Of a stretch of 64,000 bases of DNA, positions 31,487 to 39,331 are shown piece after piece; within the stretch, counting starts at the first letter, position 1, and each line of letters begins with the position of its first letter. The notes under the pieces were generated by a model. It saw only the letters and a list, made by a program, of their open reading frames with translations. It was not told the DNA's origin and did not search any database. The DNA lies in NCBI GenBank assembly GCA_965217895.1, contig CBDCJV010000002.1, positions 640,001 to 704,000 on the forward strand. The letters are read 5' to 3'. The stretch is from Waterburya sp. Lineage in GTDB: Bacteria > Cyanobacteriota > Cyanobacteriia > Cyanobacteriales > Xenococcaceae. Position numbers and translations under genes: made by a program.

Positions 31487-32503
31487 CTAGAATTCTAGAT
31501 AATATTTGCCGTCTTCCATTTTATAAAAAACAAGCTCATCTTTCCCATACTCGGTAAGGGTTTCTTGGGTGACAGGTTCATATTTCTTTAGAGTTCCAGA
31601 GCGTTCTAACTTACCCTTAAGCCATATACCAAATATTTGTAAGCTGTTTTTAGAACGAATGTTCTTATTATTGTCACCCTGAGTTCTCATCGGTATGATG
31701 TAACCGTCATCAGTGTAGGCTTCAAAATCACCTTGAGGATAATACTCTTGTGAATTCAAATCCTTATCGGCTATTAATTCAATTTCATACCAGGGGCGCG
31801 GTGTGATTATACCCGTCTTACTATTTAATCGACCCTTACCAAAATAAACATTTAGGTTTGACTGTTGTTTATCAACTACTCTCGATAAAGGAAAAACAAA
31901 TCTGGATAAATTATCTTTTGATACAGTTCTGGGATCGTATGTTGATAGACTATTCCACTGATTTTGAATCGTTGATAAAGTACTTTTCTTTTTAGTTGAA
32001 ACGATGTTGCCAGCTTTATCTATGTTTATTGCATATTCTTGTGAATATAATTCTTCTAGAAAACTGACGATTGCATCTTTTTGCTGAGGAATTATTACAG
32101 GTAGAGTACATTCAATGTTAGTTTTTGTCCCACTACTTGAAAAGTTAGAAGAACCTACATATATACTTGATTTTGATTTTCTTTCAAAATAGTAAACCTT
32201 TCCGTGATAACGTCTGCCATTCGTTAGGTATACGCCTGAAGCATTACCATAGCTTTTGAGTAGAGAATTAAGCTGAATAAGAGCATCGTATTTTTTCTGA
32301 CTCAAGCCTTCATAGAACGCCATTCCTAACAGTAGGCGTGAGCTACCGCCAGAATTGGCAATTCTGATAAAATCTGAGGTGTAAGTATTAATGATATCGA
32401 GCGATGTATAGCCAGAAGCTATAGTAACGTTTGTAGCTTTTCTGAACTCTACATCAAGTATATTACAAAAATTACCGCCAAATGCCGCTAAATTGGTAAA
32501 CAT
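31487..32503 (-). CDS. NgoFVII/CglI-type restriction endonuclease (PLD nuclease plus DNA-binding domain)
   Basis: YHGKVY...YVGSSNFS PLD motif; SNLNVYFGKGR, PRPWYEIEL, TDDG, GIWLKGKLE C-terminal motifs; overlaps the MTase. Confidence 0.85.
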   Translation of the reverse strand: MFTNLAAFGGNFCNILDVEFRKATNVTIASGYTSLDIINTYTSDFIRIANSGGSSRLLLGMAFYEGLSQKKYDALIQLNSLLKSYGNASGVYLTNGRRYHGKVYYFERKSKSSIYVGSSNFSSSGTKTNIECTLPVIIPQQKDAIVSFLEELYSQEYAINIDKAGNIVSTKKKSTLSTIQNQWNSLSTYDPRTVSKDNLSRFVFPLSRVVDKQQSNLNVYFGKGRLNSKTGIITPRPWYEIELIADKDLNSQEYYPQGDFEAYTDDGYIIPMRTQGDNNKNIRSKNSLQIFGIWLKGKLERSGTLKKYEPVTQETLTEYGKDELVFYKMEDGKYYLEF

Positions 32504-33546
32504 AATTCTGCCTTAACTCTCTCCAAATAAGGCTGAATAGCTTTTGCAAAGGGTAATATGCCAACAGGAGGAACTGAATTGCCAATTTGCCTTCTTACCT
32601 CGGTAATTGTACCTTCAAAAACAAAATTATCGGGATAACCAAAAAGTCTTGCTCTTTCGCGATTAGTGAGTGGTCTAGGTTCAGAGTAGTGATAGCCCCA
32701 AGTACCACCACCACCACCAGCAATAATTGTTGTAGAAGGTTTATCTGGATGTAAGCGTCGATAAACATGAGATATCATGCCTTTGACGTAGTGAGGTGAA
32801 TCTTTGGGAATATCTGTAAAGTTACCGCCAGCAGGAATAAGCTTTAGCTTCTCAACAGTGCTACGCTGAATGTTTTGATGCTGATTATTATGCTCTACTT
32901 TTTCAACGCCATAAAGTGCTTCTGAAGCAGAAACATAGTTGTCAAGAGTATGTGTTGGTCTAGGAACTTCAAAAGTATGTTTTATGTCTTTTCTAACGCC
33001 AATAATTAAAACTCGCTTCCTTAGCTGAGGTGTTCCATAATCAGCAAAGTTTACTAAGTGAGGTGTAGTTGTGTAGCCATACTGACCCGTTGAAGAAAAG
33101 TCTTCAACAATTTGTTTAATAGCTTTACCTTTATTGGCAGTCATTAAACCTTTAACATTTTCAGCAATAAACATTAGTGGTTCTTTCAAAGCAACAATAT
33201 CTACAAAGCTTCGATATAGATTACCTCTTTCGGTTTTAATTCCGCCACGTTTCCATATCATAGAAAAATCTTGGCAAGGAAAACCTCCTAAAATCAAGTC
33301 TGCATCAGGTATTGTAGAATGATCGAGCTTTTGTATATCTCCATGAACAATGTGTCTGCCTATATTTTTCTCGTATGTCTCACAAGCTTTTTGATCGATA
33401 TCATTTGCCCAAAGAATATTAAATCCAGCTTGGTGAAATCCTAAATCCATGCCACCACAACCTGAAAATAAAGAAATAACATCTATCTTTTGTTCAGACT
33501 TTAGTGTAGATATAGGTTCATTAAATAAGTTCAATTGAATCATCAA
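32488..33546 (-). CDS. C5 cytosine DNA methyltransferase (M.NgoFVII-like, predicted GCSGC)
   Basis: FSGCGG, GFPCQDFS, ENVKG, Q.RKR, GGGGGTWGYHY.EPR.LTNRERAR, IGNSVPP. Confidence 0.92.
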   Translation of the reverse strand: MMIQLNLFNEPISTLKSEQKIDVISLFSGCGGMDLGFHQAGFNILWANDIDQKACETYEKNIGRHIVHGDIQKLDHSTIPDADLILGGFPCQDFSMIWKRGGIKTERGNLYRSFVDIVALKEPLMFIAENVKGLMTANKGKAIKQIVEDFSSTGQYGYTTTPHLVNFADYGTPQLRKRVLIIGVRKDIKHTFEVPRPTHTLDNYVSASEALYGVEKVEHNNQHQNIQRSTVEKLKLIPAGGNFTDIPKDSPHYVKGMISHVYRRLHPDKPSTTIIAGGGGGTWGYHYSEPRPLTNRERARLFGYPDNFVFEGTITEVRRQIGNSVPPVGILPFAKAIQPYLERVKAELCLPI

Positions 33547-34655: not shown

Positions 34656-34688
34656 CCTCACAGATTCTTCAAATTTAAAAACTATGAT
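34656..34688 (+). promoter_or_regulatory. Direct-repeat box plus -10 (copy 1 of 4)
   Basis: CCTCACAGATTCTTCA, 11-nt spacer, TATGAT (34683-34688), upstream of ATG 34723. Confidence 0.65.
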
Positions 34689-34722
34689 TTAAATCAGATT
34701 GAAAAACTTGGTTTAAATAATT

Positions 34723-34929
34723 ATGAACTCTTTAACTATCTGCCCCTGTTGTTCTGCTCCCTTGTTACACCACTTAGGAAATCATCGAGAATATTGGTTT
34801 TGCCGTCACTGCTGGCAAGAAATGCCAGATCTAGGACTTGTCAAACATGAAAGGCAAGTGAAATTTTCTAAGATTATCAACCTATCAACTAGTTTTCCTC
34901 GTTACCAACCACGACTTCTACCAACCTAG
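34723..34929 (+). CDS. Small zinc-ribbon protein, conserved cyanobacterial hypothetical
   Basis: CPCC...YWFCRHCWQEMP. Confidence 0.75.
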   Translation: MNSLTICPCCSAPLLHHLGNHREYWFCRHCWQEMPDLGLVKHERQVKFSKIINLSTSFPRYQPRLLPT

Positions 34930-34993
34930 CAATAGAATTTGTTTTCAAACATCTGGGAAGACGGATAATTTCTAAAACAATACTTTTCTAGTT

Positions 34994-36529
34994 ATGGCTG
35001 ATATTTCCCAATTAATTGCTCGAATGCAGCAGCCTGATTTTTATTCTCATCATGTCGAGCAAAACATTGAGCTGGTTCAAACTCATGCTTCCTATATCTT
35101 TTTGACAGGTGAATATACCTATAAGCTAAAAAAAAATGTTGACTATGGTTTTCTAGATTATTCGACTTTAGCTAAAAGGAAATTTTTTTTAAATGAAGAG
35201 CTGAGACTTAATCAGAAAATAGCCGCCGAACTATATTTAGAAGTTATGCCGATCAGTCGTAACGAGCAGGGATTTGTTCTTGGCAACTGCGATCGCATTG
35301 TAGAATACGCTTTGAAAATGCGTCAGTTTCCTCAAGAAAACTTGTTCAGTAATTTGTTAAAAGCTGGTAAGCTCAATGGCGATCGCTTTACTAAGTTAGG
35401 AAAAATCGTCGCTAAATTTCATTTTTCTGCTGAGAGTAATGATTACATCAATAGTTTTGGCACTGTAGCCAAGATTAGTGCTGCTTTTGCAGAAAACTAT
35501 CGCCAATCTCAGAAATATGTCGGCATAGTGCAAACACAGAAACAGTTTGAAGCAACAAAAGCCTATACTGATGCTTTTTTTGCCGAACGACAAGATTTAT
35601 TCCAGGCTAGAGTCTATCGAGGCAAAATAAAAGAATGCCACGGCGACCTGCATCTCAAAAATATTTGCCTATGGAAAGACAAGATTCAGCTATTTGATCG
35701 CCTTGAATTTAATGAATCTTTCCGCTTCGTTGACACGATGTACGATATTGCGTTTACCATCATGGACTTAGAAGCGCGTGAAAAACTAGAATTCGCCAAT
35801 GCTTTCCTAAATAGTTATCTAGAATATACAGGGGACTGGGAAGGGTTACTTATATTGCCTCTATATTTAAGTAGACAGGCTTATGTTAGAGCTAAGGTAA
35901 ATTCTTTTTTACTAGACGATCCTCAAGTTGCTGAAACAGATCGACAAGAGGCTAGAAAAGCTGCTAGTAATTATTATCGACAGGCTTGCCAATATACCCA
36001 AAGTACATCAGGCAATATAATTTTGATGTCTGGCTTATCAGGGTCGGGCAAAAGTACAGTGGCTCAAAGCATTGCTAGAAAGAAAGGTGCAATCCAGATT
36101 CGCTCCGATGCTGTTCGCAAACATTTAGCAGGGATATCTTTAGATGAGTCTGGGACAGATAATATTTACTCTCAACAGATGACTCAAGGAACTTACGATC
36201 GCCTTGGGGAATTGGGAATTATTCTAGCCCAAGAAGGATATACGATAATTCTCGATGCCAAATACGATCGCCTTAGTTTGCGTCAGTCTGTGATTACCCA
36301 AGCCCAGAATAATAATATAGCTTGGAAAATAATTCACTGTACTGCACCTGTATCTGTGTTGCGCGATCGCTTAAACCAACGTCAAAATGATATCTCCGAT
36401 GCCACCGCAGATTTAATTACCAATCAGCAAGCAAAAGCAGAAGATTTCTCCCCAGCAGAACAAGCTTACGTAACAGAAATAGATACATCTCAAGCCAACT
36501 GGCAAGAAAAACTGAGTAATATCATTTAA
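34994..36529 (+). CDS. Aminoglycoside phosphotransferase-like plus P-loop kinase (AAA_33) fusion
   Basis: QTHAS, ECHGDLHLKNI, GLSGSGKS, IRSDAVRK. Confidence 0.88.
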   Translation: MADISQLIARMQQPDFYSHHVEQNIELVQTHASYIFLTGEYTYKLKKNVDYGFLDYSTLAKRKFFLNEELRLNQKIAAELYLEVMPISRNEQGFVLGNCDRIVEYALKMRQFPQENLFSNLLKAGKLNGDRFTKLGKIVAKFHFSAESNDYINSFGTVAKISAAFAENYRQSQKYVGIVQTQKQFEATKAYTDAFFAERQDLFQARVYRGKIKECHGDLHLKNICLWKDKIQLFDRLEFNESFRFVDTMYDIAFTIMDLEAREKLEFANAFLNSYLEYTGDWEGLLILPLYLSRQAYVRAKVNSFLLDDPQVAETDRQEARKAASNYYRQACQYTQSTSGNIILMSGLSGSGKSTVAQSIARKKGAIQIRSDAVRKHLAGISLDESGTDNIYSQQMTQGTYDRLGELGIILAQEGYTIILDAKYDRLSLRQSVITQAQNNNIAWKIIHCTAPVSVLRDRLNQRQNDISDATADLITNQQAKAEDFSPAEQAYVTEIDTSQANWQEKLSNII

Positions 36530-36564
36530 ACATTGTTCAACCAAAATCATCACTTTTGACTTTT

Positions 36565-36593
36565 GTACGGGCGAACGACCGTTCGCCCCTTAC
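36565..36593. repeat. REP-like palindrome
   Basis: GTACGGGCGAACG-AC-CGTTCGCCCCTTAC. Confidence 0.7.
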
Positions 36594-36614
36594 TGAATTT
36601 TGACCAACGGTCAG

Positions 36615-36693
36615 AGCAGCGCGAAAAACCGTTGCGGGGGTTTCCCCCGTTGAGGCTATTGAGTAAGCAGGCTCCGTCGTTTTACGGCGGAGT
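36615..36693. repeat. SDR-like hairpin cluster
   Basis: CGGGGG-TTT-CCCCCG and CTCCGTCG-TTTTA-CGGCGGAG between convergent genes. Confidence 0.55.
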
Positions 36694-36709
36694 AATCTCT
36701 GACTTCATT

Positions 36710-37240
36710 CTATCCCGACCAACTAACCCAATGACGGGAAGTATTCTCTTGCTTTCTTTCACATCCACCCCAATTTATGTGTTCTATAATTGCGTTTTTG
36801 GTTTCTGCTACAGAAATATCTGTGCCAGCCAGTTTTGCTTCAGTCAAATCTGCACCGCTTAAATCTGCGCCACCAAGATCTACATCAGTCAAATTGGCAC
36901 TGCATAAATTAGCACGGTGTAGATTAGCGCAGCGTAAATCAGCACCACTCAAATCTGCGCCTCTGAGATCGGCATTTTCTAGATCTGCACCAATTAGATT
37001 TACTTCTGATAAATTTGCCCCTATTAAGCTAGCGTTTACCAAATTAACGTTAGTCAAATTAGCCTGCTCTAAACAAGCACCGCTTAAATCAGTATCACTG
37101 AGGTCTGCATCACTAAGATCTGCTTGAGTTAAGTTAATTCGCGTTAGATCGGCAGCTTCAAGATGAACAGAATGTAAATTTGCACCCCTGAAATCTAATA
37201 TGCCATAACGATATTGTCGGAGTAATTGTGTAGCTTTCAT
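36710..37240 (-). CDS. Pentapeptide repeat protein
   Basis: Continuous A(D/N)LxX repeats. Confidence 0.95.
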   Translation of the reverse strand: MKATQLLRQYRYGILDFRGANLHSVHLEAADLTRINLTQADLSDADLSDTDLSGACLEQANLTNVNLVNASLIGANLSEVNLIGADLENADLRGADLSGADLRCANLHRANLCSANLTDVDLGGADLSGADLTEAKLAGTDISVAETKNAIIEHINWGGCERKQENTSRHWVSWSG

Positions 37241-37411
37241 AATCGTTTTGTTCCTTTTGCTTGTAATTCAACAGTCAACTCAAGAAACACCACCAACAAG
37301 AGTTAACTATTAGCTGTAAATAAAAATTAGAACCTTCAAATTAACTATTGAAACTTATAAAAAGCGTTAATTGTAATTGAGATTTCTAATTCATAGTCTT
37401 CATAACAAAAT

Positions 37412-37444
37412 ATATTACAAATAAAACTTGAGGAAGTTGTGAAG
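37412..37444 (-). promoter_or_regulatory. Direct-repeat box plus -10 (copy 2 of 4)
   Basis: Minus strand CTTCACAACTTCCTCA, 11-nt spacer, TAATAT. Confidence 0.6.
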
Positions 37445-37509
37445 GAAAATATTATTAAATTAGGTCATTTTAATAAAAATTACACAGTTTTTAAGTCAGA
37501 CCCTTAGTT

Positions 37510-37731
37510 TTAAAGACCATCTGTATATTGCTTGTGTAGATAGTTATAGTGTTCTCGTATAGCAGACTGTATTTCTGGTGATAAGTTATCAAACCCTGTT
37601 ATGTATCGTACGTCTGCACCCAATATCGCTAGGTCGTGAATTTGATTAGCTATAATTTTTATCCACTTGTGCTTTAAATTATGTGACTTTAATAGTTCTA
37701 TAAAATTTTGCTCAAAATGCGAACTAGTCAT
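37510..37731 (-). CDS. Small hypothetical protein
   Basis: 73-aa ORF with a well-positioned upstream CRP-type promoter. Confidence 0.6.
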   Translation of the reverse strand: MTSSHFEQNFIELLKSHNLKHKWIKIIANQIHDLAILGADVRYITGFDNLSPEIQSAIREHYNYLHKQYTDGL

Positions 37732-37760
37732 ATAACAAAATACTCATGCAATACCCTAGC

Positions 37761-37803
37761 AGTATATTAGTAAATATTTGTAGTAAATATGATCTTGATC
37801 ACA
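37761..37803 (-). promoter_or_regulatory. CRP-family (SyCRP1-like) class II promoter
   Basis: Minus strand TGTGA-TCAAGA-TCATA (37803-37788), centred at -41.5 relative to the TSS implied by -10 TATACT (37766-37761). Confidence 0.65.
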
Positions 37804-37829
37804 ATAGTATCGTTAGAGTACTGTTCGTT

Positions 37830-37866
37830 AGAAAGAAGCCAGTAGGGTTTTCCATTTCTACTGGCT
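37830..37866 (-). terminator. Intrinsic terminator after the atpT-like gene
   Basis: AGCCAGTAG / CTACTGGCT 9-bp stem followed by TCTTTCT on the minus strand. Confidence 0.6.
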
Positions 37867-37928
37867 AGGACATGAACGATAAATTTTTACCGCCTTCCGC
37901 GGTAACTAAAATTTTAGCAATGCTTCCC

Positions 37929-38063
37929 TTAGTCTTCGCTAGAATCTCCGCTAAAAGGCTGCACTCCTGATTTTGGATAATCGTCGTCTGTAGGTTTAAA
38001 GAGTCTTGAAACTCCATCCCAAAGATATTGAGTTGTGTCTTTTATCCATATAAAAATCTTCAT
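37929..38063 (-). CDS. atpT: AtpTheta (Norf1)-like 44-aa ATP synthase inhibitor, not in the ORF track
   Basis: MKIFIWIKDTTQYLWDGVSRLFKPTDDDYPKSGVQPFSGDSSED; amphipathic helix then DDxYPxxGVQPFxGD; RBS AGAGG; family recognised from memory. Confidence 0.75.
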   Translation of the reverse strand: MKIFIWIKDTTQYLWDGVSRLFKPTDDDYPKSGVQPFSGDSSED

Positions 38064-38084
38064 ATCTTTTACCTCTTTAATTAA

Positions 38085-38276
38085 TTATTCAGCTAGGAAA
38101 TCTTGATTAAATTGTTGTTTTGTCAGAGGATATTCCAAAGTAAATCCTAGATGCGGACGAGTCCTTATTACCCTACTTAATGCCCAAAGAACACTAGTCT
38201 GAGCTATGAACATTAGCAATACAGAAAATCCGATTAGTATTTGTGTTGAGCTTGATGATTTGCTACGTACTTTCAT
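38085..38276 (-). CDS. Small single-TM hypothetical protein
   Basis: 63 aa, hydrophobic ILIGFSVLLMFIA stretch, RBS GAGGT, operon position. Confidence 0.6.
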   Translation of the reverse strand: MKVRSKSSSSTQILIGFSVLLMFIAQTSVLWALSRVIRTRPHLGFTLEYPLTKQQFNQDFLAE

Positions 38277-38334
38277 TGCTTTGACCTCGACTTTCCGAAT
38301 CTATAGTTTTCTCTTATTTATCGCCAGAAGACTA

Positions 38335-38676
38335 TTAAGTAATAGCTACGCTTGTTATATTTGCCTTCGGCATAGTTATTGTTAGGACTCCATCAATTAG
38401 TTCTGCTCTAACATGGTTGATTTGAATTGGTTCTGGTAAAGAAACATTACATTCAAGCTGCCCATAGTGGAGTTGAGAGGGAATTAATTCTTTTTCCGCC
38501 AATGACTGATGATGGTCATGAATTCCAGTAATTGAGATAGATTCGGGTTCTGCACTAATATTTAGATGTTTGATTTCAATTCCAGGAATTTCCGCTTTGA
38601 GAATTAAATTTCTATCGGTTTCATTAAATTCCATGGCTGGACACCATATTTTGCCTTCTTCTGTCATTGCCTCCAT
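38335..38676 (-). CDS. Hsp20/alpha-crystallin family protein with a short N-terminus
   Basis: LILKAEIPGI, YGQL...LP, GVLTITMPK. Confidence 0.85.
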   Translation of the reverse strand: MEAMTEEGKIWCPAMEFNETDRNLILKAEIPGIEIKHLNISAEPESISITGIHDHHQSLAEKELIPSQLHYGQLECNVSLPEPIQINHVRAELIDGVLTITMPKANITSVAIT

Positions 38677-38734
38677 CTCCTGAGCTTTAATTTAGTTTGG
38701 TAATCTATTAAAACCACTTTTCTTTTATGGATTG

Positions 38735-38767
38735 AGAATAGCAACAAAGTTTGAAGAAATTGTGAGG
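38735..38767 (-). promoter_or_regulatory. Direct-repeat box plus -10 (copy 3 of 4)
   Basis: Minus strand CCTCACAATTTCTTCA, 11-nt spacer, TATTCT. Confidence 0.65.
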
Positions 38768-38794
38768 ATGGCTGGATATTTTCGTTACTATTTA

Positions 38795-39268
38795 TTAACT
38801 ACTACCAGACTTTTCTGGAGTATTAATATTTTTAGAATTTAAAGGCTGTTGAGAGCTATCTAATTCAACTATGCCAGGCTCGAATTGAACGTTATTAATA
38901 TTTATACTTAAAATCTTTTTAGTTTGATAAGTAACACCACGATACTTTAGCTTTATGCTGGGTTGAATTATTAAAATTGCATTCGGAGGTAGTTGCTGAA
39001 CAGGAAAATGACTAGACAAAAATATTTCCGTAAATTTTGTGTTTCCACAATTTATTGCTTTTGAAGCTTGCCATTTTAGCTGATGGCAACGTTCTAAATA
39101 TTCGACTATATCTAGTTCGTGACAAGTTTCCAAGTGTTGAATTCTATATCTACGCCAGAAGCCAAAGGGATTAATAAATCTAACGTAAGTATCATGAGAA
39201 AATAGCTGTTTAAAATACAGGCTAATAGGAAAACTGATTTTAACTGGTCTTGTTTCTTTTGTATTCAT
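38795..39268 (-). CDS. Hypothetical protein with a DUF4278-like LKYRGVxY motif
   Basis: KLKYRGVTY near the C-terminus; RBS GGAG. Confidence 0.6.
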   Translation of the reverse strand: MNTKETRPVKISFPISLYFKQLFSHDTYVRFINPFGFWRRYRIQHLETCHELDIVEYLERCHQLKWQASKAINCGNTKFTEIFLSSHFPVQQLPPNAILIIQPSIKLKYRGVTYQTKKILSININNVQFEPGIVELDSSQQPLNSKNINTPEKSGSS

Positions 39269-39298
39269 CAGACATCTCCAATACTCATTTTTATCCTC

Positions 39299-39331
39299 AG
39301 ATTAAGCTAATAACTTGAAGAACTTGTGAGA
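39299..39331 (-). promoter_or_regulatory. Direct-repeat box plus -10 (copy 4 of 4)
   Basis: Minus strand TCTCACAAGTTCTTCA, 11-nt spacer, TAATCT. Confidence 0.65.

Follow-up and report, generated by a model that had tools for sequence, protein, structure and literature searches.

Several described two-component systems resemble the one considered here. FixJ, the partner of FixL in rhizobia, is a NarL-type regulator; in Mycobacterium tuberculosis, DosS and DosT are heme-GAF sensors and DosR is a NarL-type regulator acting on a palindrome; and the pho box read by PhoB is an 11-bp repeat with a TCA core that ends 11 nt before the -10 hexamer. In cyanobacteria, the RfpA–RfpC–RfpB and RcaE–RcaF–RcaC relays have been described (PMC5737509), far-red light photoacclimation (FaRLiP) genes are activated through RfpB, whose binding site was still sought in 2023 (PMC10127269), and a T-rich FaRLiP motif (short form 33 bp) has been proposed as the RfpB site (bioRxiv 10.1101/2024.05.15.594131). 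Here, we analyse a direct-repeat promoter box that occurs four times in a 64,000-nt stretch of the Waterburya sp. genome (hereafter the window; assembly GCA_965217895.1, contig CBDCJV010000002.1, positions 640,001–704,000), its recurrence in this genome (G000, contig coordinates prefixed C2), in a sister species of the same genus (G097) and in other cyanobacteria, and a phosphorelay that may act through it. This relay would lead from a heme-PAS kinase (HK1160), with a single receiver (REC129), to an RcaC/RfpB-type regulator (RR606) that activates box-led promoters at low oxygen, and we give this reading of the whole chain a probability of about 0.6.

The RR606 system has the layout of RfpABC and RcaEFC, with the kinase, a single receiver and a REC–winged helix–turn–helix (wHTH)–Hpt–REC regulator encoded side by side, and far-red promoters bear a sister box of identical geometry. 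It differs from them in its sensor (a FixL-like PAS, not a bilin GAF domain) and targets (fermentation and dormancy genes, not FaRLiP or phycobilisome genes), and from RfpABC in its recognition helix (EEAVRTHIKGLR versus EDTVTAHIKGLR in RfpB) and box (CTCAC-AAGTTC-CTCAA versus CTTCAT-NAGTTC-TTCAT); neither chlF nor any FaRLiP-type core was found in G000. With FixL–FixJ and DosP of Escherichia coli it shares a PAS domain with a proximal His, coupled to a histidine kinase. However, the PAS domain alone matches FixL, HK1160 being a multi-domain kinase of soluble type that is often fused to the regulator, and for its output it uses a wHTH of OmpR type that would act on a direct repeat. As is presumably the case in the DosR regulon, several universal stress proteins (USPs), Hsp20, P-type ATPases, phosphofructokinase, a phosphoribosyltransferase, a hibernation factor and AAA_33 stand under one predicted gas switch; with its direct repeat and Trans_reg_C domain, the present system is an analogue of DosR, not a homologue. 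The box has the 11-bp repeat, the TCA core and the distance to the -10 of the pho box, and departs from it in half-site flanks, helix residues, sensor and targets. The Hrr1/H box of Nostoc flagelliforme also involves an OmpR-type regulator and an 11-nt direct repeat, and shares AGGAA-TT with the reverse strand of our box; compared by motif alone, 7 to 9 of 11 positions are common, with a TTAC instead of a TCA core, and the reported Hrr1 targets are sigB1, cpeR1 and wspA (rehydration-induced) (PMC13079394). ChlR, cyAbrB/SigE and RpaA of model cyanobacteria overlap in physiology (hox, nifJ and atpT), but ChlR is an Fe–S sensor on a palindrome, the cyAbrB are nucleoid proteins and RpaA is a clock output; the parts consulted of the 2026 redox-signalling review that treats them contain neither 'FixL' nor 'RcaC' (PMC13421787). 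In brief, the switch would work like FixLJ and DosR, is built like RfpABC and is a member of neither group. A literature search, with subscription papers mostly outside its scope and no query aimed at heme-PAS kinases, returned no account of the box or regulator, and six literal motif strings returned unrelated papers only.

All four 16-mers reported in the preliminary description, with their 11-nt spacers and TANNNT hexamers, are present where and in the orientation in which it had placed them (Table 1). In the window, YTCANNNNTTCYTCA-N11-TANNNT with at most one mismatch has five matches, of which the four exact ones are the boxes (shuffles: mean 0.30, five reached in 0/100), and a matrix scan at ≥12 bits returns the four boxes and nothing else. 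Outside box and -10, the flanks share 23–33 identities per 85 positions; an origin of the four boxes as copies of one duplicated promoter segment is rejected because such flanks are unrelated. The expected conservation upstream of orthologues holds for all four promoters in G097, which retain the box, the 11-nt spacer length and the -10. A matrix seeded with the four sites and converged genome-wide likewise bears out that the box recurs: it finds 27 sites of at least 20 bits in G000, the next best scoring 18.4 bits, and ten column-shuffled matrices yield 0–2. Their consensus is YYTCAY-AANTTC-YTCAA, 10 nt, TANNNT, i.e. 17 conserved bases in two half-sites that form a direct repeat 11 bp apart, with both TCA invariant (27/27). 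Genome-wide, TANNNT lies 11 nt beyond [CT]TCA....TTC[CT]TCA in 14 cases and 17 nt beyond it in five, and no other spacing between 4 and 21 occurs more than once. Only 1/27 sites lies within an open reading frame, against 72% of random places.

The box is also found in other cyanobacteria. A strict pattern occurs in 45/251 genomes of the phylum, and in 42/111 of the window's class, with four control hits in total. In 29 genomes chosen for having the box or the regulator, the box-only pattern gives 101 hits, many of them at orthologous sites, against two control hits, and TA follows exactly 11 nt on in 96/101 (manual count). Among the matches listed for named genomes, 26/65 cyanobacterial sites precede a gene homologous to one of the island (USP, Hsp20, Zn-ribbon, AtpTheta-like or pfkA), as do 2/21 sites in records classed as non-cyanobacterial by title; further sites lie upstream of nifJ, of hoxW and of a gene resembling protoglobin (assigned by inspection of the N-termini). 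In Chlorogloeopsis fritschii PCC 6912, 13 sites stand against no control hits, with nifJ, hoxF, ppsA plus a Zn-ribbon gene, DUF2949-pfkA, Hsp20 and an ADP-forming acyl-CoA ligase downstream, and two further genomes (G020 and G059) have the same target set. The invariant TCA cores and the fixed distance to the -10 support the OmpR/PhoB-family activator architecture proposed before, and on these regularities the box is very probably an activator site. ComFB-like genes (∼118 aa) are repeatedly found downstream of the box (L034, L035, L248, L297 and L358; identified by Pfam match for L034, as for L038, and by likeness for the others) and hint at a connection with cyclic-dinucleotide signalling.

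In G000, 22/27 sites lie in C2:514,887-679,330, a duplicated, insertion sequence (IS)-rich island of 165 kb (3% of the genome) that ends with the window block. With boundaries read from gene order, the box-led units comprise ppsA-USP-USP-USP-SpoIIAA-ldh-phosphoketolase-gpm-ackA; DUF5335-PII-glgP-(GNAT)-DUF308-glgX; units with an H+-ATPase, ribosome hibernation factor (HPF), Na+/H+ antiporter, USPs, Hsp20 and DUF4327; and units with HypC, DUF7219-CHAD and a phosphoribosyltransferase. G000 yielded no large subunit of a NiFe-hydrogenase, and hox is therefore a target in relatives only; an orphan HypC gene (C2:617,595-617,831) nonetheless stands in a box-led unit. Downstream of a box-led Hsp20 gene, a divergent psbA-like gene is broken into three frames (C2:618,326-619,398, L025); it is 59–77% identical to standard D1, is not ChlF and possibly represents a decayed D1 of the low-oxygen or 'rogue' kind. 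The window block has a paralogue at C2:512,612-515,387 (L019), with the 157-aa protein, Hsp20, GerMN and AtpTheta-like genes, in which the damage is the opposite of that in the window: an IS630-like insertion splits Hsp20, and GerMN is undamaged.

Two of the 18 wHTH genes of G000 encode REC-wHTH-Hpt-REC-REC hybrids, RR606 and RR619. RR606 adjoins a box, HK1160 and REC129. Its second receiver has His in place of Asp, and the phosphosites of the kinase, the single receiver, the Hpt and the first and third receivers are intact. The best solved match of the RR606-type wHTH is PhoB (1.5e-15), with the signature residues aligned to the PhoB recognition helix. In G097, the pentapeptide, AAA_33 and Zn-ribbon genes have the RR606 orthologue (77%), its kinase and its receiver as neighbours (L031), with five boxes within 20 kb. 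In a Nostocaceae-like family (f6), the orthologue is fused to the kinase (875–1770 aa) and in most cases diverges from a USP gene with a box in front, which hoxE-F-U-Y-H follows in five loci among those read. Box-led transcription into the regulator gene itself, as inferred from layout, occurs only in L040, L050, L035 and L190; Zn-ribbon homologues have the box upstream in many genomes and stand immediately 5' of the regulator gene in L040 and L050. Autoregulation of RR606 in G000 is rejected: the gene is on the + strand and convergent with a box-led DUF2949 unit.

Linkage between box and regulator extends beyond these genomes. Over 81 RcaC-like loci, in which kin are not independent and 13 of the first 20 were picked for a nearby box, a box lies within 5 kb of 17/24 regulators with the signature helix AVRT[HQ][IM]K[GCT]LR versus 7/57 without it; in the 59 loci not picked for a box, the counts are 5/10 versus 3/49. 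In five genomes reached through named records, a set chosen by protein likeness (helix of L266 not included), a box lies within ∼1.5 kb of 4/6 best protein matches versus 1/19 others, the sole exception being a far-red cluster. Presence of any RcaC-like gene (69/80 genomes) is uninformative. In a quick tree (L210 left out for want of a match), the fused forms group together (13/18 with box, support 88), as do three G000/G097 proteins (3/3 with box, support 97). From this linkage, we consider it quite probable that the box is read by an RR606-type regulator. The single regulator outside the window that had been postulated is thus likely RR606 at C2:4,809,562, which is none of RpaA, RpaB, NblR, SphR, ManR or Rre34, which had been put forward for testing.

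Box and recognition helix vary together: (i) the RfpB helix EDTVTAH pairs with TCAT..TCAT; (ii) the helix EEAVTAH of a further family (f3) pairs with TTCATAATTTCCTCAT; (iii) the RR606 helix EEAVRTHIKG pairs with TCAC..TCAA; and (iv) the RR619 helix EGAVRTHIKT pairs with TCAT..TCAA. In G000, CAT boxes make up 10/11 sites at 520–600 kb near RR619 versus 2/16 elsewhere, and in G097, where no RR619 orthologue was found (best 50%), all 17 matches are CAC boxes. Judged from these pairings, the CAT variant at 520–600 kb is likely the site of RR619, which is paired with a kinase of cyanobacteriochrome type, and RR606 is the better candidate for the window's boxes because all four are of CAC type. The CAT-type sub-island (C2:520,000-600,000, L020-L023), which encodes RR619, the kinase HK1446 and, behind a box, a pseudo-receiver (592,410), has the appearance of a second module copy that was acquired. 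The f3 cluster (L038, L039) comprises a regulator, a phytochrome kinase and a receiver, with its variant boxes upstream of DUF1830 and ComFB genes, and is possibly a third, light-driven member.

Upstream of chlF and psaA2 in C. fritschii and of chlF and psbA3 in Calothrix PCC 7716, we find CTTCAT-NAGTTC-TTCAT, 10 nt, TANNNT, with a fifth, weaker copy upstream of a receiver gene. This candidate site probably corresponds to the 3' portion of the FaRLiP motif already published, seen as a direct repeat plus -10. As the far-red promoters have the same geometry and are RfpB-activated, a known member of the regulator family has target promoters like those of the box.

On the input side, residues 552–680 of HK1160 have FixL (5e-14) and DosP as best solved relatives, as does the corresponding Chlorogloeopsis domain. 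This PAS alone scores 72.2 bits against the curated FixL family, below its cut-off of 850; the whole kinase was scanned against Pfam. His617, at the FixL heme-ligand position, is invariant in 18/18 aligned domains (G000 and 17 of 22 strong hits), and the His is conserved in 22/22 strong hits among 84 loci, these hits being the loci of signature regulators plus L190. In the same 84-locus scan, the FixL-like PAS was not found in far-red loci, HK1446, L045, L046, L201 or L211. It occurs once in G000. The likeness to FixL and DosP and the invariant heme-ligand His therefore indicate O2 sensing, and O2 is probably the main input of the relay. The CAC box occurs in 24/38 genomes with this PAS versus 6/42 without (80 genomes) and, within f6, in 20/20 versus 4/9.

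Several observations weigh against the proposed chain. On the sensor side, 17 rows of the PAS profile come from genomes scored in these counts and kin are not independent; outside f6, the PAS–box link is weak (4/18 versus 2/33, p 0.17), and 14/38 PAS-bearing genomes lack a CAC box. The distal Arg of FixL, present in 15/16 other rows, is Ser/Thr in G000 and G097, where one extra residue is inserted and an Arg occurs two positions before it. The PAS profile finds nothing in G011 and G038, although both carry the regulator and boxes, and the box-linked kinase of f3 is a PAS-GAF-PHY phytochrome, so that the input varies. On the regulator side, the G000/G097 regulators and the fused clade do not come together in the quick tree, the RR606 promoter lacks a box and none was found within 500 nt upstream of any of the 18 wHTH genes of G000. 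G099, G191, G026 and G086 retain 1–6 boxes at the same kinds of promoter with no signature-helix regulator found, G065 probably likewise; in G191, another gene occupies the place beside USP-hox. Such boxes fit both relics after loss of the regulator and sites of a second reader. In published expression data, PCC 7120 biofilms show all1483 up 452-fold, with alr0750, alr0751 and all0635 not among the changed genes tabulated (PMC13156569). In support of the chain, one hour after a CO2 step-down, nifJ, alr0750-hox and ppsA of Nostoc PCC 7120 fall 42-, 74- and 107-fold, with no regulator named in the parts examined (PMC7699953), and hox clusters with nifJ after Ca2+ shifts (PMC4915528). This joint response fits one shared switch, but the shifts were in CO2 and Ca2+, not in O2.

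The regulator and box could be as proposed and the input other than oxygen (i.e. light quality, darkness or adenylate charge through CBS domains, redox, NO/CO or carbon–nitrogen balance), which we regard as unlikely but the most serious alternative. Besides the f3 phytochrome, G011 and G038, the altered distal Arg in G000 and the CO2 and Ca2+ shifts, it draws on the CBS domains at the start of both G000 kinases and on HK1446 in the island, whose GAF has the DPCF and CY motifs typical of cyanobacteriochromes. However, the HK1160 GAF lacks both bilin cysteines, with DPLL and LDIK in place of the DPCF and CYIK of HK1446, and no PHY domain was found in the kinase; the FixL-like PAS is the one sensor domain common to all fused forms, including the shortest (875 aa); and the products of nifJ and hox are O2-labile fermentation enzymes.

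Less probable still is that another protein reads the box, such as a single-domain OmpR regulator (e.g. Hrr1) or RpaA, RpaB or cyAbrB, with the hybrid gene a neighbour or target. The four to five genomes with boxes but no signature regulator would suit such a reader. The Hrr1 H box, AGGAATTTACM twice, resembles the reverse strand AGGAAYTTRTG (PMC13079394) but differs in the TCA core, which is invariant in the present box. Although hox and nifJ are under RpaA and cyAbrB in model strains (PMC13421787), the CAC box is absent from 50/80 cyanobacterial genomes, unlike what a universal regulator would leave, and Synechocystis atpT relies on an HLR1-like element at -45 to -60 (PMC9241938). The closest homologues of the three RcaC-like single-domain regulators of G000 are mostly in box-less genomes (60 genomes, 48–49 candidates scored in each). 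A Crp-family gene does stand behind a box beside the regulator in G097, but its protein has no close match in G000 (best 41%), and Crp/Fnr is rejected as reader because the box is not palindromic.

It is very improbable that the box is an extended -35 of an alternative sigma factor that requires no activator: the distance to TANNNT is fixed as in any sigma promoter, but a -35 element is smaller than these two half-sites, which lie one helical turn apart and comprise 17 conserved bases, the sister element is found at promoters that depend on RfpB, and the box is linked to a wHTH regulator whose helix its variants track. Repressor sites or remains of a repeated element are barely credible, for although the box overlies the -35 region, where a bound protein could block polymerase, and 22/27 sites share one duplicated, IS-rich region, the strict orientation and spacing suit an activator and the element, with unrelated flanks, precedes unrelated genes in distant genomes.

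If low-oxygen activation through RR606 is correct, the chain may operate as follows: (i) as O2 falls, deoxy-heme would turn HK1160 on, as in FixL; (ii) phosphate would pass from His947 to REC129, to the Hpt and to the N-terminal receiver of RR606, as in RcaE-F-C and RfpA-C-B; (iii) an RR606 dimer would place two wHTH domains head to tail on the half-sites, covering the -35 region; and (iv) bound RR606 would recruit sigma-70 polymerase in a PhoB-like manner, turning on fermentation and dormancy genes.

Coordinates of the window features, the relay genes and the candidate far-red sites are given in Table 1. The four-unit dark/low-energy/stress island of the preliminary description keeps its low-energy theme but is part of a regulon of 27 sites, not four, centred on fermentation. 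Its Zn-ribbon microprotein unit is box-led and likely extends into the AAA_33 gene 64 nt downstream, whose product presumably resembles Rv2004c of the DosR regulon. What had been taken for a transmembrane peptide is an internally deleted GerMN gene, of which intact copies (199–274 aa) in the same Hsp20-GerMN-AtpTheta order occur at C2:512,791, in G097 and in Chlorogloeopsis. The 'DUF4278-like' assignment of the 157-aa protein falls away, the match being just 13 residues at E 0.05. The AtpTheta-like label of the 44-aa peptide is our assumption; no family model matches it, and one homologue carries the NCBI name 'isochorismate synthase'. Between the convergent AAA_33 and pentapeptide genes (36550-36700) lie GC-richer palindromic intergenic repeats, likely a common cyanobacterial repeat element. 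In G097, a 145-aa KaiA C-terminal-domain gene (L031:3343-3780) stands between the Zn-ribbon and AAA_33 genes and is missing there in the window. At 31487-33546, a cytosine methyltransferase and a PLD-type nuclease lie beside rsmI, a restriction–modification system as judged by eye from translations.

Table 1. Features of the window (positions within the 64,000 nt), relay genes of G000 (C2 coordinates) and candidate far-red sites (L coordinates).
Feature	Position	Strand	Remark
Direct-repeat box 1, CCTCACAGATTCTTCA, CAC type	34656..34671	+	Promoter kept in G097
-10 hexamer TATGAT, 11 nt past box 1	34683..34688	+	Predicted start ~34695
68-aa Zn-ribbon protein, CPCC...CRHC	34723..34929	+	Translation, homologue comparison
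511-aa protein, C-terminal AAA_33 P-loop domain	34994..36529	+	Probable co-transcription with Zn-ribbon gene
176-aa pentapeptide-repeat protein	36710..37240	-	PF00805, 7e-41
-10 hexamer TAATAT	37412..37417	-	Predicted start ~37405
Direct-repeat box 2, CTTCACAACTTCCTCA, CAC type	37429..37444	-	Kept in G097
44-aa AtpTheta-like peptide	37929..38063	-	Second copy at C2:512,612
63-aa remnant of GerMN (Germane) gene, internal deletion	38085..38276	-	Comparison with intact copies
113-aa Hsp20	38335..38676	-	PF00011, 4e-11
-10 hexamer TATTCT	38735..38740	-	Predicted start ~38728
Direct-repeat box 3, CCTCACAATTTCTTCA, CAC type	38752..38767	-	Kept in G097
157-aa protein of no family	38795..39268	-	Two island paralogues (54%, 36%), own box each
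-10 hexamer TAATCT	39299..39304	-	Predicted start ~39292
Direct-repeat box 4, TCTCACAAGTTCTTCA, CAC type	39316..39331	-	Kept in G097
RR606	C2:4,809,562-4,811,382	+	REC-wHTH-Hpt-pseudoREC-REC, RcaC/RfpB-type
HK1160	C2:4,812,206-4,815,688		Kinase, CBS-PAS-GAF-PAS-PAS-PAS-HisKA-HATPase (Pfam)
REC129	C2:4,816,028-4,816,417		Single receiver
RR619	C2:568,999		Hybrid paralogue of RR606 inside island
Candidate RfpB sites, C. fritschii PCC 6912	L292:9298, 9804, 16805		Pattern match
Candidate RfpB sites, Calothrix PCC 7716	L302:12356, 18586		Pattern match

The most far-reaching reading, to which we would give even odds, is twofold: (i) many filamentous and baeocyte-forming cyanobacteria would possess a master switch for oxygen sensing that has not been described before, composed of a heme kinase of FixL type and an RcaC/RfpB-type regulator, often fused, that activates bidirectional hydrogenase, PFOR, the phosphoketolase–acetate–lactate route and dormancy proteins via one box; and (ii) the boxes of RfpB and of RR606-type regulators would be sisters, told apart through two or three residues of the recognition helix. 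In the literature examined, no sensor is named for the anoxic induction of hox and nifJ in Nostoc-type cyanobacteria, the 2026 review, in the parts consulted, giving only ChlR, cyAbrB/SigE and RpaA (PMC13421787). What the present finding offers is a site together with candidates for the regulator and the sensor residue and a list of targets. If true, it would provide a strong promoter, tightly tied to low oxygen, for the engineering of hydrogen production and fermentation, a base-level model of the RfpB site and a cyanobacterial counterpart of FixLJ and DosR.

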